Below are positions 28,236 through 54,143 of a stretch of 64,000 nt of DNA, piece by piece. A model generated the notes under the pieces. It made no database searches. It was not told the DNA's origin and worked only from the letters and a program-made list of their open reading frames with translations. This stretch comes from an uncultured Methanosarcinales archaeon (GTDB lineage Archaea > Nanobdellota > Nanobdellia > Woesearchaeales > DSVV01): the NCBI GenBank assembly GCA_964556185.1, contig CAZKVI010000003.1:2089-66088 (forward strand), written 5' to 3'. Numbering within the stretch: position 1 is the first letter of the stretch; each line of letters begins with the position of its first letter. The position numbers and the translations under genes were made by a program.

Positions 28236-28336
28236 GTTTGTTCTTGATTAACTCTTAGAATTGAGGCCGAAAGGCTCGAAGTCGAAGACTTCGCCCGCCT
28301 GAAGGCTTGAACATTGAGATTGAAATGATAGACTGA
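28197..28336 (+). repeat. Direct repeat: the last 13 codons of rps10 (28197..28235) duplicated at 28298..28336, separated by a 62-bp GC-rich hairpin-containing spacer
   Basis: Copy 1 is cctgaaggcttgaacatagaaattgaaatgattgattaa. Copy 2 is cctgaaggcttgaacattgagattgaaatgatagactga. The five differences are all synonymous and include stop TAA versus TGA. Confidence 0.8.
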
Positions 28337-28390
28337 TTCTACCCAAAAGCTTTTATTTGATACTTGATTTCTCTCTATTTAGGGTGCAAA

Positions 28391-28828
28391 ATGGCTAAAG
28401 TTAAGAGTAATGCAATTGGAAAACTTGAAGATGGTACTGAAGATAATAGAGCATATAATGCATTGGTTCGTCAATATGGTGTTGCATTTAAAGAATTATA
28501 TGATAATTTTCCAAGAGAACCAAAACCAAGATTAGGTCTTTATATGATGAGTATTAAAAGACCTGAAGGAGTCTTACGTCTTACACCAGGGGTTGTTGGT
28601 AGTTCATCAGATGGGATCCAGAAAAGAGTTCAAGCACATCTAGGAAAATGCTTAGATCAAATTGGATTAGATGATTTATGTATGGACGTTTTTACAGTTT
28701 CTTGTAATAGTACGAGCAGTGTTTGTGAAATAACTCCTTACACACTTGAAGCTAGAGCTTATTTAAAACATTATGGACAACAAATACTTGTTCCAGAAAT
28801 GCGAAGATTAAGATCTCAATCAAAATAA
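28391..28828 (+). CDS. Hypothetical protein
   Basis: The likely start is MAKVKSN, internal to ORF 28364..28828. Composition is slightly GC-richer. Confidence 0.3.
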   Translation: MAKVKSNAIGKLEDGTEDNRAYNALVRQYGVAFKELYDNFPREPKPRLGLYMMSIKRPEGVLRLTPGVVGSSSDGIQKRVQAHLGKCLDQIGLDDLCMDVFTVSCNSTSSVCEITPYTLEARAYLKHYGQQILVPEMRRLRSQSK

Positions 28829-29232
28829 TCTTCATAAGCAAATTTTCTTTTTTCAAATGTACAAGATCCTTTGTCTTCAATAACATTTCCATCTAGAGAA
28901 TTCCTAAATCTAGCAATTAATGCATTACAATCACTACATCTTCGAAAACAAGTTCCAATTTCCACTTCAAAACCTTTTTCATTTAATTGTTTTAACTTAG
29001 TTGGCACTTCTGCTCTTTCTCTGAAGACATTATAAACATTATGAACAAAAGAAGAATCAATTATTGCATCAGAGAGTCTAATTTGAAGTTTACATTTCTT
29101 AGGTGCTTTAGTTTCAACAACATCTTTCCTTATAAGGATACATCTAGAATTCTTTAGTCTATTCTCTCTATCTTGCTTTTGCTTTGCAAACTTATCAGGA
29201 AGTTTAATACTTCCATCAGGATTGAATTCCAT
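28816..29232 (-). CDS. Hypothetical Cys-containing protein (CxxC...CxxxCxxC)
   Basis: ORF 28816..29328 is trimmed to the internal Met (MEFNPDG) because its N-terminal 32 codons overlap the tRNA-Lys gene. Confidence 0.3.
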   Translation of the reverse strand: MEFNPDGSIKLPDKFAKQKQDRENRLKNSRCILIRKDVVETKAPKKCKLQIRLSDAIIDSSFVHNVYNVFRERAEVPTKLKQLNEKGFEVEIGTCFRRCSDCNALIARFRNSLDGNVIEDKGSCTFEKRKFAYEDYFD

Positions 29233-29236
29233 TTTA

Positions 29237-29356
29237 CGGGCCCACGGGGATTCGAACCCCGGGCCTATGGCTGTCTGTGCGTAAGCAAAGACCCAGTGGA
29301 TCTTTGATCCTAACGCGTAAGAGGCCACCGCTCTAACCAGGCTGAGCTATGAGCCC
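29237..29356 (-). tRNA. tRNA-Lys (anticodon CUU) with a ~45-nt intron at the canonical 37/38 position
   Basis: Minus-strand read: GGGCUCA-UA-GCUC-AGCCUGGUUA-GAGC-G-GUGGC-CUCUUA[intron]A-GCCAU-AGGCC-CGGGG-UUCGAAU-CCCCG-UGGGCCC-G. All four stems pair. The T-loop is TTCGAAT. Confidence 0.7.
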
Positions 29357-29485
29357 ATAAAGGGCTTGACTGACCAAAGGGAAGGAAACCCTTCTTGCGT
29401 GTCGACCGAGCGTAACCAGTCGCCACGGGTGAGATTGAGCCCATATTATTCTCAGAATTAAATATTAATTTATAAAAGTTCTTGA

Positions 29486-30367
29486 TTATCCTTGATAAAA
29501 ACCAATTAACTGTCTTTGTCTCTTAACATGTCTTAATTTTCTTAAGGCTTTTACTTCGATTTGTCTTATTCTTTCTCTTGTTAAATCAAATACTTGACCA
29601 ATCTCTTCAAGAGAATAATGACGAGGATGATCAATTCCATATCTCATTTTCATAACTTTTTCTTCTCTGGGTGTTAATTCAGCAAGTACACTTCTAACAG
29701 CCTTTGCTAAATCAGAATCCCCTACATTTTCATCAGGTCTTCGAACACTAGCTCCTTCTATAAAATCACCTATGGTTGCATCTGATTCATCACCAACTTT
29801 TTGCTCTAATGATAATGGTTCTCTTGCAAGCCTATAAATATCTTCAATTTTTTCAACTGGTTCACCTAACCAATCTGCAATTTCTTCAGAAGTTGGTTCT
29901 CTACCAAGATCAGTAACAAGTTTTCGAGCCGTTCTTCTAACTTTAGTAACCATTTCTAATTTATAAATTGGAATTCTTATTGTTCTTACTGTAGCTTCTA
30001 TTCCTCTAATAACACTTTGTCTAATCCACCAAGAAGCATATGTAGAAAATTTATATCCTCTTCTATATTCAAATTTTTCAACAGCTCTTATTAAACCTAA
30101 ATTACCTTCTTGAATTAAATCACCAAGTGGCAAGCCTCTATATTGGTATTGTCTTGCAATACTAACAACTAGTCTTAAATTGCCTTTTATTAAATCTTCT
30201 TTAGCTGTAGCTGCTTCATAAGGAGTGCCTTCTTCCATTGTTGTAGCTAATCTAACTTCATCATCTCTAGATAATAATGCTACAGCCCCCATTTGATTCA
30301 TATACTTCCTTAGAACTCTAGGATCATCTCTATATCTTGGCCCACCTTGATAATGACTAACACCCAT
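29486..30367 (-). CDS. Bacterial-type RNA polymerase sigma-70 family factor (regions 2, 3 and 4, RpoD-like)
   Basis: [40 protein letters not shown] aligns nearly residue-for-residue with RpoD region 2.1-2.4. [14 protein letters not shown] matches region 3. [15 protein letters not shown]...[29 protein letters not shown] matches the region 4.2 HTH. GC-richer codon usage. Confidence 0.8.
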
Positions 30368-30406
30368 TTCATAAGGTAATCAATAGTTACTTTTAAACCT
30401 TCCTAG

Positions 30407-31510
30407 GTGGTCTGTGTTGATTATACCCATTCTCAAGTAGTTAAAAACAGAAAGGCTTATATATGGGATAAAGTACCTTCATATATAAAGTGGGGTTTAA
30501 ATATGAGTAAAGCAAGACAGCTTATACAAAGAGCATTGGCAGCAAAAGATGATGAATTTTTTGATGGTGTTTATAGATTTAAAAGAGGAAATGTGTTTTC
30601 ACCAATCCCTATAGACACAGCTGACCATCTTGATCTTTATAGTTCTATAGTTCAGCTTTTGAGACCAAGCAGAACACCAAGAAAATCTATTGGGGCAACT
30701 CTACTTTATCTTTTCTTAGTATCTTCACAGGAGTTTTATGGTCAAGGACCTAAAAATTATACAACTTTTGGAAGAAGAGGAAGAGATCAAATGAAAGAAC
30801 AATTGGAAGCATATTGTAGTTCTATATCTGCTTTAGAAATTGTTTATCATGATAATAATACACCAGATGGAGCTAATGCAACTGTAGGTAAATTTGATGA
30901 ACATAGCACAAGACATGAATTAGAAGATTTACTAGATCTTGTTCGAACTGATGAATGGAGAGAAGGAAGAAGTTATGAAATTGTTTATGTACAATCACCA
31001 GGAGATCTTGTTAGTGAAGATGGCAGAGAAGATATTGTAGCAGGTAGTTTATCTCAAAGATTTATAGAAGGACTTAGAGTACACGAAGATTATTTTGCAA
31101 CAAATGATACATTTAGAGAAGAAGTACCTGATGAAGATTATGCACACCTTTTTGAAGGTGATGTTAGTCATAGGGAAACATATGAACTATGTGATCAATA
31201 TCTTGTAGATCACCAAGAACTTTCAGATACAACAAGAGAACATCTTGAAGGATTTAGAGCTAGAATGTTATTCATGGCATGCTCACAAGAACAAGACCCA
31301 AAGGCGGAAGCTTTCTTTGATGGATTAGTTGCCCAAGTTTTACCAGCTCTCCCAACAGAAGAGTTTTACATAAATCAACTAGCTAGAAACGTTGCACAAA
31401 CTGGCGGTGTGTTAATTCTTGAAGGATTCCAACAACAAGAAGTAGAAGGTTTCGAACTTCTCCAAGAAGATAGGAATGTTCGTTTATACACTAGAGTTGT
31501 TGAGGAATAA
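30407..31510 (+). CDS. Hypothetical acidic protein (divergent from the sigma-factor gene)
   Basis: The likely start is the internal MSKARQ at about 30503. No motif recognised. GC-richer. Confidence 0.35.
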   Translation: MVCVDYTHSQVVKNRKAYIWDKVPSYIKWGLNMSKARQLIQRALAAKDDEFFDGVYRFKRGNVFSPIPIDTADHLDLYSSIVQLLRPSRTPRKSIGATLLYLFLVSSQEFYGQGPKNYTTFGRRGRDQMKEQLEAYCSSISALEIVYHDNNTPDGANATVGKFDEHSTRHELEDLLDLVRTDEWREGRSYEIVYVQSPGDLVSEDGREDIVAGSLSQRFIEGLRVHEDYFATNDTFREEVPDEDYAHLFEGDVSHRETYELCDQYLVDHQELSDTTREHLEGFRARMLFMACSQEQDPKAEAFFDGLVAQVLPALPTEEFYINQLARNVAQTGGVLILEGFQQQEVEGFELLQEDRNVRLYTRVVEE

Positions 31511-31561
31511 CTCTAACTATTTATCAATAAACTTTAAAAGGACTTAATTTATTCCTAATTT

Positions 31562-32260
31562 ATGGATAACTCATTTATTGCTGAAGTTTTGAAATATTCT
31601 AATATGATGAATGTTGAGCAAGGTATGAATATTTATCATTTATTAAGTCAAGTACTTGCACAAGATATTCCTGGAGAAATAGTTGAACTTGGGTGTTATG
31701 AAGGTATTACAGGTGTTCTTATCCAGAAAACATTAGATCAAGCAAATAGTAAAAAAGAATTACATTTATTTGATTCTTTTGAAGGCTTACCAAAAGTCTT
31801 ACCAGAAGATGGTCTTACTACAGCAAAAGAAGGTATGTTACGAACAGCAAAAGATAGTGTTATAGCAAACTTTAACAGATTTAATTTAAAACAACCTACT
31901 ATTTTTGAAGGTTGGTTTAAAGATACTTTACCAACTAATCTACCTGATAAAATATGTTTTGCACATTTAGATGGAGATATGTATTCTTCAATAATAGAAA
32001 GTCTTAATTATATTTATCCAAAACTTTCTAAAGGTGCAATTGTTATTATTGATGATTATTATTGTCGTGAAGGCCATATGAAAATAGAAAAAAGAATGAA
32101 TGAAAATTCATACCAACAATTTCGTAATATAATAACAGAAGTCAAAGATATTCTTCCAGGTGTAAAAAAAGCATGTGATGAGTTCTTTGAAGATAAACCA
32201 GAGAAAATAATTGTTTTAATGGCAGGTTGCGAAAGACATGCATATTTTAAGAAAATGTAG
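31562..32260 (+). CDS. Class I SAM-dependent O-methyltransferase, TylF/MycF (macrocin-O-methyltransferase) family
   Basis: GEIVELGCYEGITG (SAM motif), LHLFDSFEGLP, FAHLDGDMYSS and LSKGAIVIIDDY follow the TylF pattern. Confidence 0.65.
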   Translation: MDNSFIAEVLKYSNMMNVEQGMNIYHLLSQVLAQDIPGEIVELGCYEGITGVLIQKTLDQANSKKELHLFDSFEGLPKVLPEDGLTTAKEGMLRTAKDSVIANFNRFNLKQPTIFEGWFKDTLPTNLPDKICFAHLDGDMYSSIIESLNYIYPKLSKGAIVIIDDYYCREGHMKIEKRMNENSYQQFRNIITEVKDILPGVKKACDEFFEDKPEKIIVLMAGCERHAYFKKM

Positions 32261-32295
32261 TTAAATTTATAATACATTGCTTCTAATCTAAGAAA

Positions 32296-32973
32296 ATGGA
32301 AAAACTACACAGAGTTCAGAAATTATTAAGCAACTACGGCTATTGTTCTAGACGAAAAGCTGAAACATTAATCCAAGATGGAAGAGTTAGAGTAAATAAC
32401 AAAAGAATTACAATTGGTGATAAAGCTACTGAGAAAGATAATTTATATGTAGATAATAAACTAGTAAATAAAGAAAGTAAAATATACATAATCTTCAACA
32501 AACCTGTTGGTTGTGTAACTGCAGTAAGAGACAGAGATTACAAAACAGTTATGGATTTTGTAAAAGTTAAAGAAAGAGTTTTCCCAATTGGAAGATTAGA
32601 TTTCAACACTTCTGGATTATTATTGTTAACAAATGATGGAGACTTTGCTAACAAAGTAATGCATCCAAGATATGAAGTAGAGAAAACATACATCGTAGAA
32701 ATTGACAGACAAATTAGTAAAAAAGATATGCTAAATATCCAAAGAGGAGTTAAATTAAGAGATGGATTCACTTCCCCAGCTAAACTTAGAAGAATTAACT
32801 TAGATATAATAGAAATTAAAATCCACGAGGGCAAAAACAGAGTTGTAAGAAGAATCTTCAACAAATTAGGTTATAGAATTAACTCATTAGAAAGAGTTGC
32901 AATTGGTAAACTAAGATTAGGCAAATTACAATCTAAAAAATACAAAATTCTAAAAACAGAACCAAGAATTTAA
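32296..32973 (+). CDS. Pseudouridine synthase, RsuA/RluB family, with N-terminal S4 domain
   Basis: S4 segment VQKLLSNYGYCSRRKAETLIQDGRVRVN. Catalytic motif FPIGRLDFNTSGLLLLTNDGDF with the conserved Asp. Confidence 0.8.
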   Translation: MEKLHRVQKLLSNYGYCSRRKAETLIQDGRVRVNNKRITIGDKATEKDNLYVDNKLVNKESKIYIIFNKPVGCVTAVRDRDYKTVMDFVKVKERVFPIGRLDFNTSGLLLLTNDGDFANKVMHPRYEVEKTYIVEIDRQISKKDMLNIQRGVKLRDGFTSPAKLRRINLDIIEIKIHEGKNRVVRRIFNKLGYRINSLERVAIGKLRLGKLQSKKYKILKTEPRI

Positions 32974-35222
32974 CCCCAAGAATAATCAACAACTATATGC
33001 ACTGGAACTATTGTGCCACCATACTCAAAATTTCCCATACCTGCTCCTTGTAATCTTGTTGCATCGTTATTTAATTCTGCTAAAACATCTGGATTATTTG
33101 GATAATGAGGAACAACACTAGTCTTACTTGTAGATGAATCATGGAAATATCCAAATGGATCTGGTGTTGCAATTCCCCAGAAATCACATGTTCTTGAGAA
33201 CTCAGAAGACTCCCACCAAGATAATAACCAGTCAGTACTTCCATCATAAACATTCAAATTAACTTCATAAGCAGAAGGATCATCTTCAGAAGCTTCTAAT
33301 CTTGTTGGTGCTTTACTTGAAGAAGGATATTTCTCATCAACTTCCCATGTATTATATTCAGAACCACTTACAGTACTTGAATCACTTTCCCATTGCAGAC
33401 TACATGATCTTGCGTATTCTATAAATTGGTGTTCATTATAACTATAATAAAGCATTTGATCTTTAACAACAAACTCATCATTGTCCTCGTCATAAACCAA
33501 TGTATCTCTTGACATCATATATCCTCTTTCAAACCAAGATCCTGTTCCAGGATCTCCTGATAAAGTTAATTCAGACATATCTACAGATGTACTATAACTC
33601 CATGAATAAGTTGTATAACCACTCCATTCAGGAGCACATTTACCTTCTGCATCAATATCAAATTGAGTAAATGCAATATTATCTAAATGTGAATTTGCAA
33701 CAATAACAACTGCTACATCTATTTCTTCTGTTGGTCTTGTTCTACAAAATTTTAACTTTTTCAACTCAGAAACATCTTGGTAAAACCAATGCTCTCCAAT
33801 TTTATAAACTATTTGTGTTGCAAAGTCTGGTTGAGAATCTGTAGTAATTAAACTAAAATCAAACTCAACTCTATCAATATCATCTTCAAAGAAATAATAA
33901 TAATACATTATTCCTCCTGGGTTTAAATTAACTTCTTGAGTGTATTTTTCTTTATTCTCAAATGTTTTCTTTTTCCTACTTTGTCCATATGGTTTTTTTG
34001 TTGGTTTATTATTATGATCATAATAAAACTTAAATGGTTCTGTATTGTAATTGTATAAAGCATATTGTTTAAACTCTTCATAAAAGTCTGGTCTATTTTT
34101 TATTGCATCTTTCATACCTAATAAACCTGCTTCATCTAACATTTTCTTGACGACCATTCCATCTTTTCCATATCTATGTGATAAAAACCAAGGCCATAAA
34201 TAAGAACCATATTGATGATAAGTTACATTATCAGAGTCAAAAAAATCTTTATTAAAATAAGGAAAAATATTACTATCAAAACCATGCTCTGTATTAACTT
34301 CAGGATATGTAAAATCTTCTGACCATGTTGCAGTTGATTCCCAAATCCATTCTTCTGTAGAATATGACTTCAAAGGAATATATTGTTGAAAACAATGAAA
34401 TAATTCATGTGCTGTTGATGTTTTTAATGCATCATCACTTTGTGAAGTACTAATTAAAATATGACATCTATTAGCTCCTTCATGATCATCCATATATTGT
34501 TGTCCATCATCTTCTAAGCTTTGTACTTTTACATAAATCCAATCTGTTGGTTCTTTCATTCCAAGATTTTTATATTTATTATAAGAATGTTCTAAAGCAG
34601 CTTTTACAATATCTGCTTTATCAGTTATCCAAGGATCATCATAATGCACTTGCCATTTTCCATCAATTGGATGTTCATTATCCATTGCATTTACTGAAGG
34701 TATAATAGCTACTGCATCTAAAAATTCCCTTGCTAAAGATTCATCTTCTTGATTAATTTTATACCAATAACTTTCAGGATCATCAGGATTTGTAACAAAA
34801 GGTCTTAGAATATCTTGTGTTTCCTCAGAGAAATCATCAATTCTATCATTAATCATCAATAATAAGAAAGAACTATCTCTTCTTTCTGCTCTAATTGATT
34901 TGTATTCATTTGGTAAGTTTTTATGATCAAATGCTTCCAAAACTCTTAGAATATAATACTCTTCTTCTGTAATTATTCCTTTATTATGATAAGCATCATT
35001 GATTAATGTTAGAGATAATGGTTCTTCAGGTTCCTCTGGTTCTCTTTCTTCATAAATATCTAATAACCAGTCTTCAAAATCACTTGTATCTACATTACCA
35101 CCACCAATTGAAAATCCACTATCATCACTTCCACAACCTTTGAATAACAAGAATAGAATTACTAATATTACAATACCTACAATTGCAAGAAGAATAGTTT
35201 TCCGCCCCATAGGCATTTCCAA
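32970..35222 (-). CDS. Membrane-anchored secreted protein with an HExxH zinc-metallopeptidase motif
   Basis: N-terminal signal-anchor (ILLAIVGIVILVILFLLF), a TSTAHELFHCFQQY motif, and a large Trp/Tyr-rich extracytoplasmic domain. Confidence 0.45.
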   Translation of the reverse strand: MEMPMGRKTILLAIVGIVILVILFLLFKGCGSDDSGFSIGGGNVDTSDFEDWLLDIYEEREPEEPEEPLSLTLINDAYHNKGIITEEEYYILRVLEAFDHKNLPNEYKSIRAERRDSSFLLLMINDRIDDFSEETQDILRPFVTNPDDPESYWYKINQEDESLAREFLDAVAIIPSVNAMDNEHPIDGKWQVHYDDPWITDKADIVKAALEHSYNKYKNLGMKEPTDWIYVKVQSLEDDGQQYMDDHEGANRCHILISTSQSDDALKTSTAHELFHCFQQYIPLKSYSTEEWIWESTATWSEDFTYPEVNTEHGFDSNIFPYFNKDFFDSDNVTYHQYGSYLWPWFLSHRYGKDGMVVKKMLDEAGLLGMKDAIKNRPDFYEEFKQYALYNYNTEPFKFYYDHNNKPTKKPYGQSRKKKTFENKEKYTQEVNLNPGGIMYYYYFFEDDIDRVEFDFSLITTDSQPDFATQIVYKIGEHWFYQDVSELKKLKFCRTRPTEEIDVAVVIVANSHLDNIAFTQFDIDAEGKCAPEWSGYTTYSWSYSTSVDMSELTLSGDPGTGSWFERGYMMSRDTLVYDEDNDEFVVKDQMLYYSYNEHQFIEYARSCSLQWESDSSTVSGSEYNTWEVDEKYPSSSKAPTRLEASEDDPSAYEVNLNVYDGSTDWLLSWWESSEFSRTCDFWGIATPDPFGYFHDSSTSKTSVVPHYPNNPDVLAELNNDATRLQGAGMGNFEYGGTIVPVHIVVDYSWG

Positions 35223-35294
35223 TGTCTTCTACTATTTAAATTTTAAGAAAATCTTTATAAATAACTATATTAATTAATTCCATGGGGTGATATA

Positions 35295-35828: not shown

Positions 35829-35846
35829 TTATTTCTTTTTTTCTTT

Positions 35847-44140: not shown

Positions 44141-44443
44141 TTATTTCAGGCTTTTATTATTTAATCTAGCTTTTCTAATTTTAATAAGCTTCTTAATCTT
44201 CTTATTCCATCTTTTAATATCTAAAAATTTAGCAAAACAAGATTTATCACTTCTTAATTTTGTTCTGTCATCATAACCTCTAAATCCATCTCTATAATTT
44301 GTCCAATCATCATACATTTCTTTTGGTTCTAGACATTCTTCAATTAGTTTACTCTTTTTTAACTTAATGGTTGAGTTAGGAGTAACTCTACCACTATGTC
44401 TTCTTTTCTTTCTGTTCATTTTATTAGAATACCCTAATGACAA
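44141..44443 (-). CDS. Small basic (Lys/Arg-rich) protein
   Basis: 100 aa with K/R-rich termini. Confidence 0.3.
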   Translation of the reverse strand: MSLGYSNKMNRKKRRHSGRVTPNSTIKLKKSKLIEECLEPKEMYDDWTNYRDGFRGYDDRTKLRSDKSCFAKFLDIKRWNKKIKKLIKIRKARLNNKSLK

Positions 44444-44556
44444 GGCTTTTACCTTGCCATTTTAAGATTATATCTATTAAGGGTAGCAGCACATGGCTTT
44501 GCATCTTTTCTCACCATCTGTCCAAAAGTACATGACTTATTTTTATTGTTCTTGGA

Positions 44557-44904
44557 CTATGAGTTAATTGTTGGAGAAGTTTTACTAATCTCTTCAATAG
44601 ATTTTAAAGCTTCTTCAATTGCTTTAATCTTTTCTTCAGAGATCTCTTCTTTTTCCACAATCCTTTGTTTCATATTATCATATTCTTGTATGGCTTTCTC
44701 AATCTCTCTTTCTTTATTCCTTTTTTCTCTTTTTATGTCTTCTTCAATATCTTTGTTCCAGTTTTCTAAATCAATCTTTAATTCTTCTATTTGTTGTTCT
44801 TTGTGTTTTAATTTTTCCTTAAATGTTGACTTGGTAGTCATGATGTCAAGTTTTCTTCCTGTAAGTCTTTCCACAATACTATATCTTGATTGACTTTCTG
44901 TCAT
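44557..44904 (-). CDS. Coiled-coil protein
   Basis: 115 aa, Glu/Lys heptads. Confidence 0.35.
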   Translation of the reverse strand: MTESQSRYSIVERLTGRKLDIMTTKSTFKEKLKHKEQQIEELKIDLENWNKDIEEDIKREKRNKEREIEKAIQEYDNMKQRIVEKEEISEEKIKAIEEALKSIEEISKTSPTINS

Positions 44905-44934
44905 GTTCTCACCTCATTTTTTTACTGTTAATAG

Positions 44935-45070
44935 CGCCAGGGACGGGAGTTTCAGTAACTTCAAAGAGTTACACCCCATCAGTTGACATTTGAACCCACG
45001 TGACATTCAGGGGACGAATGTCAACTGGATCATCAGTCCAGCGTCTTGAGCCAGACTCGACCACCCTGGC
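44935..45070 (-). ncRNA. tRNA-like structured RNA (possible multi-intron tRNA, anticodon-like arm with GAU), with a partial duplicate at 45120..45175
   Basis: Minus strand has a 7-bp terminal helix GCCAGGG/CCCUGGC, UG, a D-like arm GUCG-AGUCUGGCUCA-AGAC, a stem-loop CUGGA-CUGAUGA-UCCAG and GUGGGUUCAAAU. About 60 extra nt include an 8-bp hairpin UGACAUUC/GAAUGUCA. A BRE/TATA ccgaaaactttatata in minus orientation lies at 45247-45262. Confidence 0.3.
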
Positions 45071-45224
45071 CTCGCCAACAGTAAAGTTTATATACTTGTT
45101 TGAATATACAATTAATTAAGGGGACGAATGTCAATTTGGATTATCAATCCAGTTTCTTTGGCCAACTTGGCCTTTTTTCTTTTTCAATATTCATTTTATA
45201 TATTGGCTCTATAAAGAACCATTA

Positions 45225-45725
45225 TTGGTAACCAATATAGATTACAATAAATATATAAAGTTTTCGGTTACTAATATATATTGTAATATGTATCCAGCTA
45301 AAAAAGAAAAGATAATTCATACAAAAATTATTGAATTTTTGAGAAATAATCCAAAAGGCCTTACTATGACTCAATTAGTAAGAGCCACAAAATTCTCTAG
45401 AAAGGCCATTGAAAAGCACCTAGAAGTATTAATATTGGAAAATGAGATTTATATGAAAAAATTTGGAGTTACAAAGGTTTATTACCCAAACCATAGAATT
45501 CATCACTTTGATTTTGAAAAATTGAGCTTTAACAACAGAACTATTTGGTTTGATATTTTAGAGAATGAATACGGGAAATATTTATTGATACAAAAAAAGA
45601 AAAAAGTAGAAGATAAATGGGAACATGAGCATTCAATCACAATACCATTAGAAAAAAGCAAAGAATTCTTAAAAACATTAGATAATCTTTTGAAATCAAG
45701 TAGAATGAAGAAATTGATTAAATAA
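45225..45725 (+). CDS. Winged-helix DNA-binding protein
   Basis: LTMTQLVRATKFSRKAIEKHLEVLILENEIY is wHTH-like. The true start is probably MYPAKKEK at about 45288. Confidence 0.4.
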   Translation: MVTNIDYNKYIKFSVTNIYCNMYPAKKEKIIHTKIIEFLRNNPKGLTMTQLVRATKFSRKAIEKHLEVLILENEIYMKKFGVTKVYYPNHRIHHFDFEKLSFNNRTIWFDILENEYGKYLLIQKKKKVEDKWEHEHSITIPLEKSKEFLKTLDNLLKSSRMKKLIK

Positions 45726-45766
45726 CCATCAATAAATTTATTAATACATCAATCAATAATCTTTCT

Positions 45767-46648: not shown

Positions 46649-46755
46649 TGGTAATTATATAACATTAAATATTGTTTATCACAACATCTGATGTTAAACT
46701 AAAGTTCTCTAAAATTAACAGATTGTTAATAACAAAGAACAAGTGAAAAACTTCT

Positions 46756-47571
46756 CTACTTAAAGTCATGTTCTTTGTATTTCTTAAGAAGTCCTAAAAT
46801 TTCCTTATCTTTAATATCTTTCAATTTTAAAATAATATTATTTATATCATCGCCTTCTTCACTATTGTCTTCTTTTCTAAAACTTATTGAAATTTTATCA
46901 TCTTGCCAAATAAAATATCTCAATATCTCAATATCTTTATCATTAGAGTTGTCCTCTAGCCATTTTCCAAGCTTTTTCTTTAATTTAAATAAATCTTCAT
47001 CATATTTTGGTGTTTTAGTATAAAGTGCTCTAGCGAAACCCTCTAATCCAATAATACTATTAAGTTTTTTCTTTGTTTTTCTTGAATAATATTCATAGTC
47101 TGTTCTACTAATTGGTTTTTCCTCAATAATCCTTTTAATTATTTGTTTTTCTTTTTTTGTGAAAATTTGAGATAGCCACATCTGTAGATTTCTCTCTGCA
47201 TAGATTTTTTGCTTGTCAATTATTAATTCAGATTTTTTTAATCTAGCTAATTGCAATTCAAACTCTTGTTTAAATTCATCATAATCAAGATTTCCTTTAT
47301 TACTAAACTCAGGCAATTGTTTATCAATATTATTCTCTTCAAATATTATTCTTGTAAAAGCTAATATTTGGCTAAAAATCTTTTTTTTAGGTGTTTTTTG
47401 ATATAATTCTTCAATATCTAAGTCATACTTATAAATTAGAAATGGAATAGCTTTCAAATATCTTATATTCTCAGTCTTCAAAATAGATAAAATTAGTTTT
47501 TCTTTGCTTTTATCTGCACCAAGCATCCTGTAGCCTGCATCAGTAAGCTTTTTCTCTATTGCTGTTGCCAT
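46756..47571 (-). CDS. Hypothetical protein (second gene of the inserted two-gene cassette)
   Basis: 271 aa. It overlaps the upstream nucleotidyltransferase-like gene by 16 nt. Confidence 0.35.
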   Translation of the reverse strand: MATAIEKKLTDAGYRMLGADKSKEKLILSILKTENIRYLKAIPFLIYKYDLDIEELYQKTPKKKIFSQILAFTRIIFEENNIDKQLPEFSNKGNLDYDEFKQEFELQLARLKKSELIIDKQKIYAERNLQMWLSQIFTKKEKQIIKRIIEEKPISRTDYEYYSRKTKKKLNSIIGLEGFARALYTKTPKYDEDLFKLKKKLGKWLEDNSNDKDIEILRYFIWQDDKISISFRKEDNSEEGDDINNIILKLKDIKDKEILGLLKKYKEHDFK

Positions 47572-48176
47572 TTTTTAACCTCATTTATTATTTCTTTATT
47601 TTCCATATTCCATTCTTTAAATTTTATTTCAATTAGATCTAATAATTTTTGTTTATAATTTGCAACAATAGATGTTTGCATAGTTTCTTTATATCTACTA
47701 ACAAGTTCTTTAAGATCTATTTTCTCTTTTTCAAAAATTCTTTTTACATCATCAAAGTCTCTAGAATCACCTCTTGCTAATTTACTTATTATAACATCAT
47801 ACAAAGATAATGTATAAAGTTCAATCTTACCAAATGATTGAATATGTTTGGATTTTTCTAAACAATCTGGAAGTAAATCAGTTCCTAAAATATATGAACT
47901 ATGAAAGACATCAAAAGCCAAACCTTCTTGTGTAATCCAGCGAATATGTCCTGTTTTCTCAAATCCAATCTGTTCAAATATCTTACAGATATATTTGTAT
48001 TCTTTATCTGAGTGGATATTAATATCTATGTCTAATGTTGATTGTTTGATATTAAGTATTGTTAATGCTGTTCCACCTAATGCATACATCTTAGTTTTCT
48101 TTTCAATAAATTTTGATAGGGATTCAAGTAATTCAAAGAGTTCATTAGCATTAATTTCTTTTTTATTGTGAGGCAT
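47556..48176 (-). CDS. Nucleotidyltransferase-fold protein (AbiEii/MNT-like) inside the inserted cassette
   Basis: YALGGTALTILNIKQSTLDIDINI fits the G-G-x(n)-DxD nucleotidyltransferase signature. Confidence 0.4.
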   Translation of the reverse strand: MPHNKKEINANELFELLESLSKFIEKKTKMYALGGTALTILNIKQSTLDIDINIHSDKEYKYICKIFEQIGFEKTGHIRWITQEGLAFDVFHSSYILGTDLLPDCLEKSKHIQSFGKIELYTLSLYDVIISKLARGDSRDFDDVKRIFEKEKIDLKELVSRYKETMQTSIVANYKQKLLDLIEIKFKEWNMENKEIINEVKKWQQQ

Positions 48177-48553
48177 ATTACTAATAAAACAGCTTTAGTA
48201 TATAAATCTTCCTATTTTTGTACGTATATATACAATTATTGTATAAAAAACTCACAAAGAAGGCTATAACAATGACTATGCAGATGGATTGTTGAAGTTG
48301 GAAGAATGAATATAAACAAAGAAAACTAGCAAATAATGTAGTGGTTAACTTTTTAATAAATTACTATTTAATATGTAAAATGTAGTGGTTATATATTTCT
48401 CTAAATTAGGTGTCTACATTTATGGTGTTTTGTAGTCACCCATATATTGATTATTTATTTCTAACTAGTTCAATTAATTTCATTCTTACTTTGGTTCAAA
48501 TTAAGACCAAAAAAGTTCTTCTTAAGATTTGAGTATGGATTGTAAGAAAAAAA

Positions 48554-48640: not shown

Positions 48641-48649
48641 AAATTAAAA

Positions 48650-48763
48650 CGCTGTGGCCCGGATTTGAACCGGGATATCCCGGAGGAAACAAGCTAAACA
48701 GTGCATGCCTTGAAAATACATACATTTCCAGGCTTGCGCAGTACCAGGTTGTGCCACCACAGC
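48650..48763 (-). tRNA. tRNA-Ser (anticodon GGA) with a ~30-nt intron at 37/38 and a long variable arm
   Basis: Acceptor GCUGUGG/CCACAGC plus G. Anticodon stem CAAGC/GCUUG. Loop CUGGAA[intron]A. Variable arm ~15 nt. T-arm CCCGG-UUCAAAU-CCGGG. Confidence 0.65.
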
Positions 48764-48770
48764 AAAAAAA

Positions 48771-48897
48771 GGTGGCAGTGGCGGGATCTGAACCCGCGGC
48801 TTCTAGATCGCCCAGATATAAAGTTTAATCATCGGCATGAGCCTCATCACTCAAATCTTATGAGTCTAGCACTCTAACCAGGCTGAGTTACACTGCC
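48771..48897 (-). tRNA. tRNA-Met (CAU anticodon; possibly Ile2 if C34 is modified) with a ~50-nt intron at 37/38, encoded CC, and an oligo-T terminator
   Basis: Acceptor GGCAGUG/CACUGCC plus A plus CC. D-arm ACUC-AGCCUGGUUA-GAGU. Anticodon stem CUAGA/UCUAG. Loop CUCAUA[intron]A. T-arm GCGGG-UUCAGAU-CCCGC. The intron contains GUGAUGA (C-box-like). Confidence 0.65.
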
Positions 48898-48914
48898 TTA
48901 ATTATTGTTTAGAA

Positions 48915-49334: not shown

Positions 49335-49375
49335 TGTAATCTCTAGGAGAATATAGTTGTTAAAAAATGTTTTGG

Positions 49376-49879
49376 TTAATAACTACCTTGCATTTCTTTG
49401 ATTTTTTCTTTAAGAACTTCGATTGTTCGTGCATTATCTTGTTGTTGTAATAATGTACCACATTCAGGACACTTAAACTCTAACTCTGTACTTTGCTCAA
49501 AATCTAATCTAGCGCAAGCATTTGTGCATAAAAAGAAACATCCTTTGTTTGATTCTTCTCTTTCAAGTCTTTCTTGTAGTTTTTCTAAGCGAGTACTATG
49601 AATAACAGAAGCAACATCTTTAAGTCTTTTAGGAAAATAAGTCCAATAACTGATATAATAACCTTTTTTAGAGTCTTTTTTTCTTTTATATGTAGCAAGA
49701 TTCATACTATGCATTCTATATAAGATATTTCTTACTTGATGGATCTCAATCTCAGTTTTCTCAGAAATTATAAACTCAGAAATATTTTTCCTATTTTTAA
49801 GGAAATCTACAATAGGTAAACAGTCTTCACCGATTGCATTTGTTATTGTATCTTGAGCCATCTTATTTGTCATACGCAT
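49376..49879 (-). CDS. tfe: Transcription factor E (TFE, TFIIE-alpha homologue)
   Basis: N-terminal winged helix (IVDFLKNRKNISEFIISEKTEIEIHQVRNILYRMHSMNLATYKRKKD) plus a C-terminal zinc ribbon (C-x-x-C ... CPECG). Confidence 0.75.
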   Translation of the reverse strand: MRMTNKMAQDTITNAIGEDCLPIVDFLKNRKNISEFIISEKTEIEIHQVRNILYRMHSMNLATYKRKKDSKKGYYISYWTYFPKRLKDVASVIHSTRLEKLQERLEREESNKGCFFLCTNACARLDFEQSTELEFKCPECGTLLQQQDNARTIEVLKEKIKEMQGSY

Positions 49880-50040
49880 AAGTCTCTTCCCCCATTCTCG
49901 GAGCGACAGAGTCCTATGTTTTGGAGTCTTGTTTTACTTCCCCAACAACACATTACTCTCAATTCCCCGTATAGTTCCTCTGGTAACTTATATAAAAACT
50001 TTTTCATTGTGTCATATATACGTTTTCTGAGGTTTCTGTT

Positions 50041-50120
50041 TATACTAAAAGTGATTAATCACTTTTGTATATACAAAAGTGTGAAATAATGAAATTATTT
50101 TGCACTTTAAGTATATATAT
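50041..50120. promoter_or_regulatory. Repeated intergenic module (copy B) with the perfect palindrome AAAAGTGATTAATCACTTTT and a second palindrome GTGTGAAATAAT..ATTATTTTGCAC
   Basis: Paralogous to 43207..43300. A minus-oriented BRE/TATA (ccgaaaggtttatatata, 50207-50230) lies upstream, so it may be transcribed. Confidence 0.45.
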
Positions 50121-50269
50121 AGCGAAGTTAGAAGTTCAACAAGAACTTCTCATTATTACCCATATACTGGATAATAACCTTCATATCAATATTAATGCCA
50201 TAGGTTATATATAAACCTTTCGGTTATGTAGTTACTTTAGAGGAGTTAATATATAAAAGAAAGTATATA

Positions 50270-50341
50270 TGGACTCACCGAGATTTGAACTCGGAGTCTC
50301 CCCGAAGCCAACGGGGTGCGATACCATTTCGCCATAAGCCC
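50270..50341 (-). tRNA. tRNA-Ala (anticodon GGC), intron-less
   Basis: Acceptor GGGCUUA/UGAGUCC includes the G3:U70 alanine identity pair. D-arm GCGA-AAUGGUA-UCGC. Anticodon arm CCCCG-UUGGCUU-CGGGG. T-arm CCGAG-UUCAAAU-CUCGG. Confidence 0.8.
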
Positions 50342-50508
50342 ATACAATGCTAGCTACATATATGCTTATATATAATTTACGCTAATTTCTCACTATATGT
50401 AGTACTTGTACACATTACATAACTTTCTAATAAAGCAATCCTAATATACAAATCATAACCTTTTTATATCACCTTAGTCATACTTTGACTTAACACGGGG
50501 GTGTTTAA

Positions 50509-50895
50509 ATGGTAATTTTATTTGATAGATTCAATATGCCGGATGATGTTTTCGAAGTCATCTTCGCTACACCACAACAGAAAATAGTTGGTAAACTTCT
50601 AATTAAAATGATAAAAGAAAAAGGTGGAGAAATTACTAAAACAGAAATGAGCACTTTTGCAATGGCTCTCCATGAAGGAAGACTAGTAACAAATGAAGTT
50701 GATGATCCACAATACAAAAATAAAGAAGTCAAACTAAGTTATAACAAAAGACAATTCTACGACAGAATATTGACTCCAATGAAAGGTATGGGTTTAATCG
50801 ACTACGATCTTTACAAAAAGACATACAGAATCTCAGACAAATTCAACAAAGCAATGATAAAAGTAGGATTAATGTGGATGAGAGAGATAAGGTAA
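50509..50895 (+). CDS. Hypothetical protein (possible wHTH)
   Basis: 128-aa ORF. Confidence 0.3.
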   Translation: MVILFDRFNMPDDVFEVIFATPQQKIVGKLLIKMIKEKGGEITKTEMSTFAMALHEGRLVTNEVDDPQYKNKEVKLSYNKRQFYDRILTPMKGMGLIDYDLYKKTYRISDKFNKAMIKVGLMWMREIR

Positions 50896-51297
50896 TCATC
50901 CACCAATCTTTTTATCTATATCTTCAGCTATTTCTTTAAGACTATCAAAAGTCCTATGCATATCCTTCTCTAACTCATCAATTAATCTACTCAAGTTGTG
51001 AACTCTTAGAATATAACCTTTCTTTTCCTGCACTACAATCCCTGAATCCATTAACTTATGCAAGTGATGCACTACAGTGCCCCTAGATAATTGCAATCTA
51101 ACAGCTAATCCATCACTAGAAATAGGCTCATCTTTCTTTGCTTGCTTTAATAATTCAATAAATATTCTAAAACATGATCGATCTTTATCACGTAAACTAA
51201 ATAATCCAAGAGAAGTACCAAACCACTGCAATTTCTCATTAATATTACTTCTCACAGGCCTTCTAATCTTGATTATAGTGATTCTTCGTTGCTCCAT
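50896..51297 (-). CDS. ArsR/SmtB-family transcriptional regulator
   Basis: CFRIFIELLK...ISSDGLAVRLQLSRGTVVHHLHKLMDSGIVV is an ArsR-type HTH. Confidence 0.6.
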   Translation of the reverse strand: MEQRRITIIKIRRPVRSNINEKLQWFGTSLGLFSLRDKDRSCFRIFIELLKQAKKDEPISSDGLAVRLQLSRGTVVHHLHKLMDSGIVVQEKKGYILRVHNLSRLIDELEKDMHRTFDSLKEIAEDIDKKIGG

Positions 51298-51340
51298 ATT
51301 AGAAATTGATGTAGAAGATGTTTATAAATATTCTTTAATT

Positions 51341-51583
51341 TTACTGTAAATCTTTATGATATAAAGCAATAATATAAATGACTCTTTTTTCAATCCTATA
51401 TGATAATCTAAATGGAGGAATATACAACTCTCTTGTCCCTTTTCTATTATACATCATAGGTTTGCCAATCTCAGGATTATCTTTTATTTTAGAAATTTGT
51501 TTGATGATTTTCTGTTTAAGGGCATTATTCTTAATCTTACTAAATTCCTTCTTAAATAAAGAATCAAAAATAACTTCTACCAC
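51341..51583 (-). CDS. RelE/ParE-family type II toxin
   Basis: 80 aa. C-terminus ...RELYIPPFRLSYRIEKRVIYIIALYHKDLQ follows the RelE/ParE pattern. It overlaps the upstream antitoxin gene by 7 nt. Confidence 0.55.
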   Translation of the reverse strand: MVEVIFDSLFKKEFSKIKNNALKQKIIKQISKIKDNPEIGKPMMYNRKGTRELYIPPFRLSYRIEKRVIYIIALYHKDLQ

Positions 51584-51843
51584 TTTTTCATTTCCTCAAG
51601 AAAATCATCAAATTCCATTTTAATGCCTTTACCTTCTTCAATTCTCTTCCAAGCTTGTTCTGTTCTTTTTGCAAATTCTAGATCTTCTTTTAGATTTTTC
51701 TCTAATTCTGTAGCTTTCTTCATAATTAATTGATGGTCATTCTTAATAATGATTAATTTATCTCCTTCATGAAGATCTCCTCTCATTTCATTAGGAATTA
51801 CAACTTGGCCTTTTGAACTCATTCGTGTTATAGCAACATCCAT
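51577..51843 (-). CDS. AbrB/MazE/SpoVT-type antitoxin
   Basis: MDVAITRMSSKGQVVIPNEMRGDLHEGDKLII is a swapped-hairpin beta-barrel DNA-binding motif. Confidence 0.6.
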   Translation of the reverse strand: MDVAITRMSSKGQVVIPNEMRGDLHEGDKLIIIKNDHQLIMKKATELEKNLKEDLEFAKRTEQAWKRIEEGKGIKMEFDDFLEEMKKW

Positions 51844-51960
51844 ATTATCACCAAGTAAGATTAATCTTACTTAGTATATAAAGTTTACGGTTTTACACGT
51901 AAACTAAGAAGTCGAAGACTTCTGTATCTTTCTATTTTAGTATATAAATTAGTATAATAT

Positions 51961-52386
51961 TTACTGTAACCAAATAGGCAACATTGGACTAACTATTGGA
52001 GCTACTAATTCCCATGCATATGGTGCTAATATGATAATAACTCCTAAAATCAATGTATGATACCAACGTTCACCAACTTTTCCTGCAATAGCTGCTGCAC
52101 CAGCAATTTTAAACATTGCAATAATACCTATCACAACCCTAATACCAAATTCTACAAACCAATCAGCTGTAAAAGCTAAATTCATCCATCCAAGAACAAA
52201 ACTAATATTCATACTTACAAAAACAAAGAATAATGTAAATGGCAGAGCATGCAAAGCATGAGTAAACCAACCCATTCCTGCTTCATCACTATGTACAAAC
52301 ACAACTTCAATAAGCCCAATCAAAATACCCATAACAATAGCAGGCCCTATAACATATGTTTGTACAACTATCTCTTCTGTCACCAT
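51961..52386 (-). CDS. Integral membrane protein (4 TM)
   Basis: 141 aa, hydrophobic. Confidence 0.4.
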   Translation of the reverse strand: MVTEEIVVQTYVIGPAIVMGILIGLIEVVFVHSDEAGMGWFTHALHALPFTLFFVFVSMNISFVLGWMNLAFTADWFVEFGIRVVIGIIAMFKIAGAAAIAGKVGERWYHTLILGVIIILAPYAWELVAPIVSPMLPIWLQ

Positions 52387-52469
52387 CTTGTCAATAATTC
52401 TGAAGATTTTCCTATAAAAACTTTTCTATTGTGACAATATTTAAATATGAGTAATCTGCAAATATACCT

Positions 52470-53072
52470 ATGCAGTGGAAAAAACTATCTCCATACATAT
52501 TATCTTTCTTTGTGTTACTTACAGCAGTTTATGCAAGAACTAGGTTTCCAACAGGAGAATTAAGAGATGTTATGAATGTATTTGGAGATATTTACAACCA
52601 AGCACCATATTTAGTTGATGCATTAGTATTATTAATTATATTTGTACCTTTAGCAAGGAAGATCCTAGGAGAAAGACTAGGTAAAGTCCCAGCAACAGGC
52701 TTAGGATTTTTATTAGTGCTTTCAGTTATTGTTTCAGAAGCAAAATTCGATTATAGTATTATTAGGGATTTTAGTATTCCAGCAGTTATAATCTTATTAT
52801 CAATGTTTGGAATTAGTTTATTTGTTATGTTAAAACAATTTGATGCAAATACTTGGTTAGCAGTCAGTGCTGGTTGGGTAGCTGTTGTCGTAGTATCTTA
52901 TTTTGCAGTCCCAGATGTTGTTGAAATGATACAAAGAGATTATGAAGTCATTTGGTGGTTTTTAATTGTATTAACTGGATTTTTTATACTTGCATTTGTT
53001 TTTAGTATGTTCTTTGGCGGTGGCGGAGGGGGCCATCATGAACCAGCAGCTCCAGCAGCACCTCATCCTTAA
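52470..53072 (+). CDS. Integral membrane protein with a Gly/His/Pro-rich C-terminal tail
   Basis: N-terminal signal/TM, about 5 TM helices, and a tail GGGGGGHHEPAAPAAPHP. Confidence 0.4.
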   Translation: MQWKKLSPYILSFFVLLTAVYARTRFPTGELRDVMNVFGDIYNQAPYLVDALVLLIIFVPLARKILGERLGKVPATGLGFLLVLSVIVSEAKFDYSIIRDFSIPAVIILLSMFGISLFVMLKQFDANTWLAVSAGWVAVVVVSYFAVPDVVEMIQRDYEVIWWFLIVLTGFFILAFVFSMFFGGGGGGHHEPAAPAAPHP

Positions 53073-53177
53073 TTACTTTTAGTATAAAATCAAACTAAAC
53101 ATTTATATATACTATTTCTTAGAAATTATACTATTGTGGGTAATCAATTAAACTTTCCGAAGGAAAGCAAGAAGTCG

Positions 53178-54143
53178 ATGAGACTTCTGTGGAAGAGGAT
53201 AATATTAGTTTTATCTATATTTCTTGCTACATTGCAGACTACTCTAGCTTATTCTTGGAGTGAGTTTGTAAGCACAACAATGAAAATATACAATGCTCAA
53301 GCAGATTTCTTTTCTAATATATTTAATGCAGCACCTCCTTTATTCCATGCACTCTTTTATTGGCTTTTTATCTATATTGCAATCTTCAGAAAATATGTAA
53401 AACCAAAATTAGGAGCAGGTTTTGCATTGGGAATGCCTGTTTTATTAGCTCTTGGGGTTGTTACAGCTGAACGCTTAACAGGAGTAAGCTTTTTTTGGAT
53501 GTTTTTAATCTTTTTTGGAATATATAAAACATTGTTTGTAATTCTTGCATTCAGAAAAGCTAATTTTCCAGTAATTTTAATTGGATCATTAGCTTTTATT
53601 ATTGCATTTGTTCTTTTATTATTTTACCAACCAGCATGGTTTATTGATTTTAGACAAGATCATCCACTTATTATGTTATTAGGATATATTTTGTTTGCAA
53701 TCTTTTCAATAATTACTTTATTTGGTGCTTTTAGATACATAATTGGTGGAGGTTATAGTAATATTCAATGGCCACCTCCATTTAGACAAACATATAAAGA
53801 TTTATATGGTGATCCAGGATCCTCCTCCTCTTCAGGTCAATCAACACCAAATATGTCAAGATTACATAGAAAAGCTGAAAAGTTTCTTGCAAATTCTGCA
53901 GAATACGCTGCTGCAGAACAAAAGTATGCACAAATGAATGCATCACAAAGAGCAAAAGTAGAAAAAGATATGCAAGATAGTCGAATTTCTTTGATAGCAA
54001 GGGGAACTGCAATAAGAAATCATAAAAAATATGAAAGAGATGTTCCACAAGATGTTAAACATAGATTTGAAACAGCATTTAATGCTATTATGACTCAAGG
54101 TGGCTCACATGGTGGAGCAGGTGGCGGAGGCCCTGGCCATTAA
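53178..54143 (+). CDS. Integral membrane protein with a Gly/His-rich C-terminal tail
   Basis: Start placed at the internal ATG (MRLLWKRIILVLSIFLATL, signal-like). It has multiple TM helices and a tail GGSHGGAGGGGPGH. The track ORF begins at 53136. Confidence 0.4.
   Translation: MRLLWKRIILVLSIFLATLQTTLAYSWSEFVSTTMKIYNAQADFFSNIFNAAPPLFHALFYWLFIYIAIFRKYVKPKLGAGFALGMPVLLALGVVTAERLTGVSFFWMFLIFFGIYKTLFVILAFRKANFPVILIGSLAFIIAFVLLLFYQPAWFIDFRQDHPLIMLLGYILFAIFSIITLFGAFRYIIGGGYSNIQWPPPFRQTYKDLYGDPGSSSSSGQSTPNMSRLHRKAEKFLANSAEYAAAEQKYAQMNASQRAKVEKDMQDSRISLIARGTAIRNHKKYERDVPQDVKHRFETAFNAIMTQGGSHGGAGGGGPGH

Follow-up and report, generated by a model that had tools for sequence, protein, structure and literature searches.

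A lineage-specific family of double-hairpin repeats, probably selfish insertion elements, in a Woesearchaeota-like archaeon

Several kinds of short hairpin repeat, including the repetitive extragenic palindromic (REP) sequences with their RAYT proteins and the IS200/IS605-derived palindrome-associated transposable elements (PATEs), are believed to depend for their movement on a Y1 (HUH) transposase supplied in trans. IS200/IS605 elements themselves lack terminal inverted repeats, generate no target duplication, carry hairpins at both ends and insert beside a fixed short target. Very small dispersed repeats are also on record from cyanobacteria (Elhai et al. 2008, Genome Res 18:1484, cited in PMC2884548). 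They are said to be mobile-looking, a few tens of bases in length, hairpin-forming, nested, and present in RNA genes and open reading frames (ORFs). REP sequences are extragenic, and REPINs are inverted pairs of the same palindrome (PMC3116915). The double-hairpin elements of Allomyces mitochondria are reported to lack flanking duplications, and an RNA intermediate was proposed on that basis (summarised in PMC2800124). The Rickettsia palindromic elements (RPEs) are palindromic repeats found in frame within unrelated protein genes, to which their insertion adds a conserved peptide (PMC10969869). This article compares these systems with a dispersed family of double-hairpin elements, 36-44 nucleotides (nt) long, in a 64-kb stretch of archaeal DNA from contig CAZKVI010000003.1; the whole of that stretch is referred to as the window.

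The family came to notice through an exact 15-mer hairpin, GAAGTCGAAGACTTC, reported to occur twice in the window. The repeat is real, although the original prediction placed each copy one nucleotide too high; the correct positions are 28278-28292 and 51908-51922. Dinucleotide shuffles give 0.00 expected matches to GAAGTCGAAGACTTC, in agreement with the argument that chance recurrence is negligible. The 15-mer is the core of the second of two adjacent stem-loops, here called H1 and H2. The idea of a dispersed, structured motif not due to chance is therefore borne out, but the unit is a double hairpin of about 40 nt rather than the 15-mer, and it occupies more than the three loci first listed. 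That these sequences constitute a lineage-specific double-hairpin repeat family is secure. With a probability of roughly 0.7, the 15-nt hairpin is the H2 of a one-lineage family of non-autonomous, probably selfish insertion elements. This reading is indicated by the presence or absence of copies among relatives, two independent insertions into the same spacer, a copy nested within another and compensatory changes in the stems.

The usual layout is RWA, H1 (a 5-7 bp stem of variable sequence, with a loop that is mostly GAA or of the GNRA type), 1-2 nt, H2 (AGAAGnn, a loop of 3-5 nt, nnCTTCT) and GTR (Table 1). The window holds four matches to GAAGTC-N(1-9)-GACTTC against 0.03 expected, and 13 hairpins of the form GAAG-n-loop-n-CTTC against about 0.8 expected. 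The variant GAAGTC-GATGA-GACTTC lies at 53171-53187 as claimed, and the ATG in its loop (53178-53180) is in frame with the ORF at 53136-54143. The mini-hairpins said to precede two of the copies are likewise present (GGCC-GAAA-GGCT at 28265-28276 and CTTTCC-GAA-GGAAAG at 53153-53167). Three things had been overlooked: the hairpin GTTTACG-N8-CGTAAAC in front of the 51908 copy, a fourth match to GAAGTC..GACTTC that lies within the P0 gene (13626-13642), and further family members at 13458, 13578 and 17085-17120 (minus strand). A scan for perfect hairpins located five clustered in the acidic tail of P0 (13458-13642). The sequence CTTTCC-GAR-GGAAAG precedes a GAAGTC hairpin both in this tail and at 53153, and short-word BLAST aligns 13576-13599 with 53151-53174 at 23 of 24 bases (E 9e-6). 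Of the copies in the window, five are full and strong, a sixth has been split by a nested insertion, one in the S10 spacer is divergent and one is a probable remnant. The divergent copy is assigned to the family because it has the identical 15-mer and the two-hairpin layout.

Table 1. Double-hairpin elements of the window, with folding energy (z score in brackets) and score against covariance model R1
Element	Position (strand)	Site or remark	Hairpins and flank	Fold (kcal/mol)	R1 score
Subfamily A	13458..13493 (+)	In frame, P0 tail	GTTGAC-AAA-GTCAAC GA AGAAGC-GCAA-GCTTCT GTA	-14 (z -3.8)	54.1 bits (seed)
Outer element of nested pair	13569..13646 (+)	P0 tail; H2 at 13625-13643 holds the fourth GAAGTC..GACTTC hairpin	GTTTCC-GAA ... 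GGAAAC GA AGAAGTC-GCAGA-GACTTCT GAA		
Inner element, subfamily B	13578..13616 (+)	In frame, P0	CTTTCC-GAG-GGAAAG CA AGAAGCT-GATAA-AGCTTCT GTG		61.8 bits (seed)
Probable decayed copy	15215..15239 (+)	H2 destroyed; orthologous to intact L227 element 8923-8966	AACTTTTCTACAGAAAGTAAAGAAT		
Intergenic element	17085..17120 (-)	Between divergent PIN_9 gene (16641-17021, minus) and AP-endonuclease-like gene (from 17165, plus)	CTTTAC-GCA-GTAAAG TA AGAAGC-GTTA-GCTTCT GTA		52.5 bits (seed)
Divergent, GC-richer copy	28265..28293 (+)	Between S10 3'-end copies; contains one exact 15-mer	GGCC-GAAA-GGCT then CGAAGTC-GAA-GACTTCG	-13.2	
Intergenic element	51883..51926 (+)	Contains second exact 15-mer	GTTTACG-GTTTTACA-CGTAAAC TA AGAAGTC-GAA-GACTTCT GTA	-16.5 (z -4.0)	
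Subfamily B	53153..53191 (+)	Membrane-protein gene 5' end; ATG 53178 in H2 loop	CTTTCC-GAA-GGAAAG CA AGAAGTC-GATGA-GACTTCT GTG	-14.6 (z -3.2)	69.7 bits (seed)

All copies fold as two adjacent hairpins under either RNA or DNA energy parameters (RNA, -11 to -16.5 kcal/mol), and several lines of evidence indicate that the pairing has been maintained. In an alignment of 15 sequences (A6), 96% of cells are paired, and in 6 pairs both partners have changed. Its covariation score of 0.225 compares with 0.075 for shuffles (0 of 500 reach 0.225) and at most 0.082 for slid controls. The H1 stems form a stepwise compensatory series (CTTTCC/GGAAAG, CTTTAC/GTAAAG, GTTTAC/GTAAAC, GTTGAC/GTCAAC, GGTTC/GAACC). 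The inner pairs of H2 vary as well (GTC/GAC, GCT/AGC, GCC/GGC, GTT/GAC), and one relative (L227) has AGAATTC/GAATTCT. Several of the relatives' copies were recovered by filtering for hairpins or by matching a 20-nt sequence pattern, and part of their pairing is therefore built in; the sets free of this bias are the inner H2 pairs of the pattern-found copies and all copies found later with the covariance model (those of L227 and the non-seed matches). In the flanks, A at position -1 and GT directly after H2 are each found in 17 of 18 copies. The 5' context RWA could be either a target preference or part of the element.

The model in question, R1, was built from 11 copies, four of which are from the window (13458, 13578, 17085 and 53153). 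It also finds copies outside this seed: one in the window at the edge of a toxin-antitoxin pair (51880-51929, 42.4 bits, E 1.7e-9), the 3' part of the split P0 copy (13620-13649, 26.2 bits, E 4.5e-5), and two in relatives, at L216 8210-8254 (39.6 bits, E 1.2e-8) and at the intergenic site L214 7129-7171 on the minus strand (28.0 bits, E 1.8e-5). A 12.5-kb region of L227 was chosen through its P0 protein and not through the motif, and therefore provides an unbiased sample; it contains four R1 copies scoring 27-54 bits, compared to about seven in the 64-kb window.

Comparison with relatives provides evidence that the elements move. A metagenome search with TTCCGARGGAAAGCAAGAAG gave five low-GC matches, four of them from sample Ga0233437, among whose contigs L212 shows synteny with the window (about 90% identity). 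Within the roughly 50-nt intron of a tRNA(CAU) gene (window 48773-48897, minus strand), L212 has a 39-nt insert, CTTTCCGAAGGAAAGTAAGAAGTCGAAAAGACTTCTGTA, that the window lacks, while the exons are conserved. This element contains an in-frame TAA. The L212 tRNA with its enlarged intron was not recognised by Rfam, and its exons were aligned to those of the window tRNA. In the spacer after the P1 gene, L227 carries an element (an indel of about 42 nt) just beyond the P1 terminator hairpin, and the window spacer (14246-14307) is empty. In the spacer between the PIN_9 and AP-endonuclease-like genes, the window and L227 both have elements, but these differ in sequence, lie in opposite orientations and stand on opposite sides of a shared block, TTTCCATTACAT, indicating two independent events. 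The intact L227 element at 8923-8966 (38.7 bits with R1) corresponds to the window sequence at 15215-15239, which a by-eye comparison tentatively identifies as a decayed copy. No target-site duplication is found at the nested P0 copy, the tRNA-intron copy or the P1-spacer copy. A 12-nt repeat, TTAGTATATAAA, does flank the 51883-51926 copy; it is a recurrent promoter-like word with three exact copies in the window. As judged from these sequence comparisons, mobility is well supported, and among the options originally raised for the motif, that of a miniature mobile element is the one favoured by the relatives' presence and absence patterns, the nested copy, the independent insertions into one spacer and the occurrence of copies in coding, intronic and intergenic sites.

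Some further features of these loci were seen along the way. The intron of tRNA(CAU), the gene found at window 48773-48897 and at L212 about 1790-2090, contains a C-box-like GUGAUGA and a C'-box-like (C)UGAUGA, as in intron-encoded C/D box sRNAs, and the L212 element sits between the C/D-like halves. A C/D-box or K-turn reading of the hairpins themselves was rejected on inspection. None of the three intron-bearing tRNAs of the window was recovered by ARAGORN, and the PIN_9 gene is not called in L228 (6423-6936).

More than half of the known copies lie within ORFs. There are ten coding copies, located in P0 (three, in the window), uL22, a PPDK_N-domain protein and a coiled-coil protein. In the relatives, the uL22 copy is in a C-terminal extension (L215), the PPDK_N copy is in an acidic region (L214), and the 817-amino-acid (aa) coiled-coil protein (L216) has the element at three sites. 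Near-identical copies of the 13458 element occur in the L214 PPDK_N protein and the L215 uL22 tail. All ten are read on the same strand and in the same frame, giving hydrophilic peptides such as LSEGKQEVDETSV (pattern LSEGKQE[VA]xx[TA]). The single strand and frame are most simply explained by filtering, with only the hydrophilic, acidic reading being tolerated in disordered tails. In three proteins module A precedes module B by 120-180 nt. The two modules might mark opposite ends of a single larger element, but the DNA between them is not conserved. The noncoding copies occupy the tRNA intron and, facing either way, spacers. A further one, at the 5' end of the membrane-protein gene, is either part of the leader or read in a different frame.

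The P0 tail contains the nested pair. The complete 39-nt inner element splits H1 of the outer one at a point between the loop and the 3' arm, and once these 39 nt are taken out the outer element is again a perfect double hairpin (-15 kcal/mol, z -3.4). In the minimum-energy fold of 13560-13652, the outer H1 encloses the inner hairpins. The element segments of the tail are missing from the proteins of close relatives (P0007-P0010), in which the globular part is 92% identical, and R1 finds no match in the P0 genes of L227-L229. No match to the 69-aa P0 tail was found by phmmer among 1.84 billion representative proteins. P0 (L10) ranges from 280 to 597 aa in Woesearchaeota by way of variable low-complexity tails (window gene 12588-13892; homologues P0006-P0125). 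On inspection, the usual conserved C-terminal peptide is not apparent at any end of the close relatives' P0 tails.

The comparisons show that copies come and go as exact units between close relatives, that they insert into one another and that they have entered the same spacer independently. They persist where they do little harm, either outside proteins (a tRNA intron, a 5' leader, and spacers, in which both orientations occur) or in the disordered tails of proteins. The proposed mover is an enzyme acting in trans that would recognise hairpins in single-stranded nucleic acid. The absence of terminal inverted repeats and of target duplications, the hairpins at both ends and the fixed 5' context are consistent with handling as a folded single strand, and a DNA-level process is favoured because intergenic copies orient freely. 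The most economical guess for the mover would be a Y1 transposase acting on single-stranded DNA, similar to those of the IS200/IS605 or REP/RAYT systems; an RNA-mediated route would be the main alternative mechanism. Any such mover would presumably be encoded elsewhere in the genome. A Pfam scan of all window ORFs of at least 100 aa revealed no transposase, integrase, reverse transcriptase or RAYT, and no Y1 transposase domain (RAYT or TnpA) is present in the window ORFs.

In kind, the nearest analogues known are the systems described at the outset. The archaeal elements resemble IS200/IS605 elements in their end hairpins and in lacking terminal inverted repeats and target duplications. Their RWA context could be a counterpart of the fixed short sequence 5' of an IS200/IS605 insertion, or else part of the element. 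They differ from miniature inverted-repeat transposable elements in that the 5'-terminal CTTTCC... cannot pair with the 3'-terminal ...CTTCTGTR, all pairing being within H1 or within H2, and in that the nested, tRNA-intron and P1-spacer copies have no target-site duplication. They also depart from REP sequences and REPINs, with ten copies inside ORFs and with H1 and H2 being different hairpins in tandem rather than inverted copies of one palindrome. The likeness to the double-hairpin and repetitive hairpin-forming elements of mitochondria (Allomyces, other fungi, sponges) is broader: both are short, consist of two adjacent hairpins, are dispersed in multiple copies, are GC-richer than their AT-rich hosts, are found in spacers and genes, vary in copy set between close relatives, and lack flanking duplications (for the mitochondrial elements, as reported from Allomyces). 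The present elements differ in their archaeal chromosomal host, their unrelated sequences and their spread in frame into ribosomal-protein tails and into a tRNA intron, and the resemblance is one of kind only, with no sequence relationship. The RPEs are bacterial and about 150 bp long, whereas the archaeal elements are 36-44 nt, have two separate hairpins and favour disordered tails. The cyanobacterial repeats belong to a different domain of life and have unrelated sequences; the comparison with them serves as a lead. Finally, an archaeal bulge-helix-bulge intron, with two 3-nt bulges either side of a 4-bp helix across the element's ends, does not fit folds consisting of two closed adjacent hairpins whose flanks do not pair with each other, although no dedicated bulge-helix-bulge search was run.

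The family is confined to one Woesearchaeota-like (DPANN) lineage, in which close relatives about 90% identical to the window carry further copies. The window has a G+C content of 31.5% and encodes intron-containing tRNAs and the archaeal translation proteins aEF1A, aEF2, S10, L7Ae, L1, P0 with the archaeal insert, and P1; its L7Ae is at most 77% identical to that of any GTDB species representative, and the best matches are all from Woesearchaeota/Nanoarchaeia (DPANN). No close relative emerged from this L7Ae scan, which was used as a negative control. The family was not found in 1.02 Mb from 80 more distant Woesearchaeota genomes, in which the top R1 score was 21.6 bits and the plain GAAGTC..GACTTC pattern occurred once. 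An Rfam search of the window found only tRNAs above gathering thresholds, and lax searches around two of the copies gave nothing above 21 bits, compared to thresholds of at least 35 bits. Literature searches for DPANN or Woesearchaeota repeats of the double-hairpin type found none, nor any archaeal precedent.

Several candidate members were rejected. Hairpins at 7471, 23909, 24606, 29199, 29381 and 50131 have GAAG..CTTC but not the rest of the element and were taken as unrelated. Two R1 matches were discarded as well: the one at 58353-58382 (22.5 bits) has only an H1-like hairpin, in a globular ORF, and the one at L226 539-576 resembles a terminator. Searching viral contigs for the 15-mer alone gave at least 120 single unrelated matches, which are uninformative random background. 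The hairpin at window 50131-50149 (GAAGTTC-AACAA-GAACTTC, a perfect 7 bp) adjoins a tRNA-Ala gene and is kept in L212 at 4735-4753.

Three of the noncoding copies occupy loci with a history of their own. At the S10 locus, the last 39 nt of the gene are duplicated (28197-28235 and 28298-28336), with differences only at synonymous or stop positions. Two relatives (L223 and L224) have the same arrangement with a changed hairpin loop, a weakened H1 and the two tail alleles in swapped order. In four others (L221, L222, L225, L226) the duplication, the hairpin and the downstream 145-aa gene are jointly missing, and because of this co-absence the S10 copy is considered part of a strain-variable junction. 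The pattern suggests insertion of a gene together with gene conversion between the repeats; a template/variable repeat relation of the diversity-generating retroelement type was rejected, as the two copies do not differ specifically at adenines. The first base of the hairpin, 28278, is the exact end point of three independent metagenome contigs, and a fourth ends exactly at 28336, the stop codon of the second S10-tail copy (the four are loci L004-L007). The contig ends at the hairpin may reflect strain heterogeneity or breaks of the assembly graph at a palindrome.

The 51883-51926 copy is at the edge of a strain-specific ParE/MazE-AbrB toxin-antitoxin pair (51341-51843). L212 has unrelated sequence instead of the whole block 51333-51954, and the P0005 contig lacks the pair as well. 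Where the pair would be, L212 has 223 nt (6758-6980) with a long imperfect inverted repeat (CCTAGGTTAAC ... GTTAACCTAGG). The 53153 copy lies in a conserved block of 130-140 nt (about 53128-53268) that is 100% identical in three relatives while the rest of the gene is about 80-93% identical, the most distant relative having about 80%. In this block even the synonymous sites of the signal-peptide codons are conserved, and the block folds into four hairpins (z -3.5). This copy is old, and it may have been co-opted by the host, making it the best candidate for an acquired function. Gene callers took either ATG 53178 or the in-frame GTG 53136 as the start of the membrane protein in relatives; the GTG is about 25-30 nt downstream of a TATA-like box.

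Other variation in the region involves different genes. This archaeal genome has a gene (29486-30367, minus strand) for a complete sigma-70 protein of bacterial type, with Pfam regions 1.2, 2, 3 and 4, and some relatives have two tandem copies of it (L221 8122-9012 and 9102-9983). In L223 (6494-7231) and L224 (3055-3792), a free-standing LAGLIDADG_3 endonuclease ORF lies between a 138-aa gene and the sigma-70 gene, at a site where the window instead has an intron-bearing tRNA (29237-29356). Blocks 44144-45730 and 46650-48245 of the window are strain-specific and missing in L212, with a DUF6036 nucleotidyltransferase gene among them. The region of strain-specific blocks is a mosaic of small variable gene insertions.

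Other explanations of the repeats deserve consideration. One is that they are host cis-acting RNA signals (terminators, processing sites or controls of translation initiation) kept by selection at each locus. The 53153 copy fits this idea, being at an mRNA 5' end with an in-frame ATG in its H2 loop and within the 130-nt block that is 100% conserved in relatives. The S10 copy is located between two same-strand genes, and in three elements G-U wobbles occur on the sense strand only. As an account of the family, however, RNA signalling is improbable. H2 is followed by GTR rather than the T-run of an intrinsic terminator, and true terminator-like hairpins with T-runs occur separately, for example after the P1 gene (14244-14261). 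Copies are found inside ORFs and a tRNA intron, intergenic copies have both orientations, and two of them (L227 7163-7207 and window 51883-51926) are antisense to both neighbouring genes. Many copies are missing in close relatives with gene order unchanged, and there is no Rfam match. The terminator or processing signal entertained in the original prediction thus lacks support as the identity of the family. It is less probable still, indeed very hard to credit, that the repeat is a short peptide motif of disordered tails, with the hairpins a by-product of the codons used. The shared strand and frame of the ten coding copies and their similar hydrophilic peptides in otherwise different proteins are what this explanation would predict. 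However, full copies exist in noncoding positions, including the tRNA intron with its in-frame stop codon, spacers in both orientations and the leader or different frame at 53153, and the sequence between modules A and B is not conserved. Furthermore, in the coding copies the covarying bases are at third codon positions (synonymous), the third base of the V/A codon covarying with that of the codon before T/A, and selection on the peptide therefore cannot account for the covariation.

The hairpins could also be recombination sites at gene-cassette junctions, similar to the attC sites of integrons, or palindromic operators for a DNA-binding protein. Intergenic copies do adjoin strain-specific genes (the 145-aa gene with the S10-tail duplication, the ParE/MazE pair and, in L227, a 237-aa gene), and three metagenome contigs break exactly at 28278. 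This too seems unlikely, since the window has no integrase and no cassette array, and many copies, such as those in the tRNA intron, the P1 spacer and the tails of P0 and uL22, are away from variable genes. The probable decayed copy at 15215-15239 is retained in the window although the 237-aa gene is absent. Known attC sites are also longer than the double-hairpin element. The protein-binding hairpin raised in the original prediction is a possibility, and binding of this kind would be required in any case if an enzyme moves the element.

The interpretation of the family as insertion elements must itself be set against a number of observations that count against it. A random inserter would need strong filtering to yield one strand and one frame in all coding copies. 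The 53153 copy, conserved at 100% with about 75 nt of flank in three relatives, looks functional rather than selfish. The S10-spacer copy barely fits R1 (the H2 part only, 8.5 bits), the element ends are uncertain by about 3 nt, and recovery of relatives' copies by pattern or hairpin filter inflates the apparent conservation. No insertion has been seen directly, and any of the apparent gains might, in formal terms, be an exact loss from the other lineage. Finally, no mobilising enzyme has been identified in the 64-kb window.

If these elements are indeed insertional, they are a tangible example of how selfish DNA can add new stretches of peptide to core proteins of translation, and such insertion may help to explain the variable lengths of P0 tails noted above. 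A dense repeat family is unexpected here, because DPANN genomes are small and streamlined. The elements also mark recombination-prone junctions that break metagenome assemblies. A bolder proposal, somewhat less likely than not, is that they represent a new class of archaeal mobile elements of about 40 nt, moving as folded single strands without target duplications and present every 3-9 kb or so in a reduced DPANN genome. Such elements would have been adopted repeatedly in frame, lengthening disordered regions that include the tails of the ribosomal proteins P0 and uL22, and one copy or more would have been co-opted as a conserved 5' leader with a candidate start codon in its loop. Model R1 offers a searchable handle toward the enzyme that moves such small hairpin elements.

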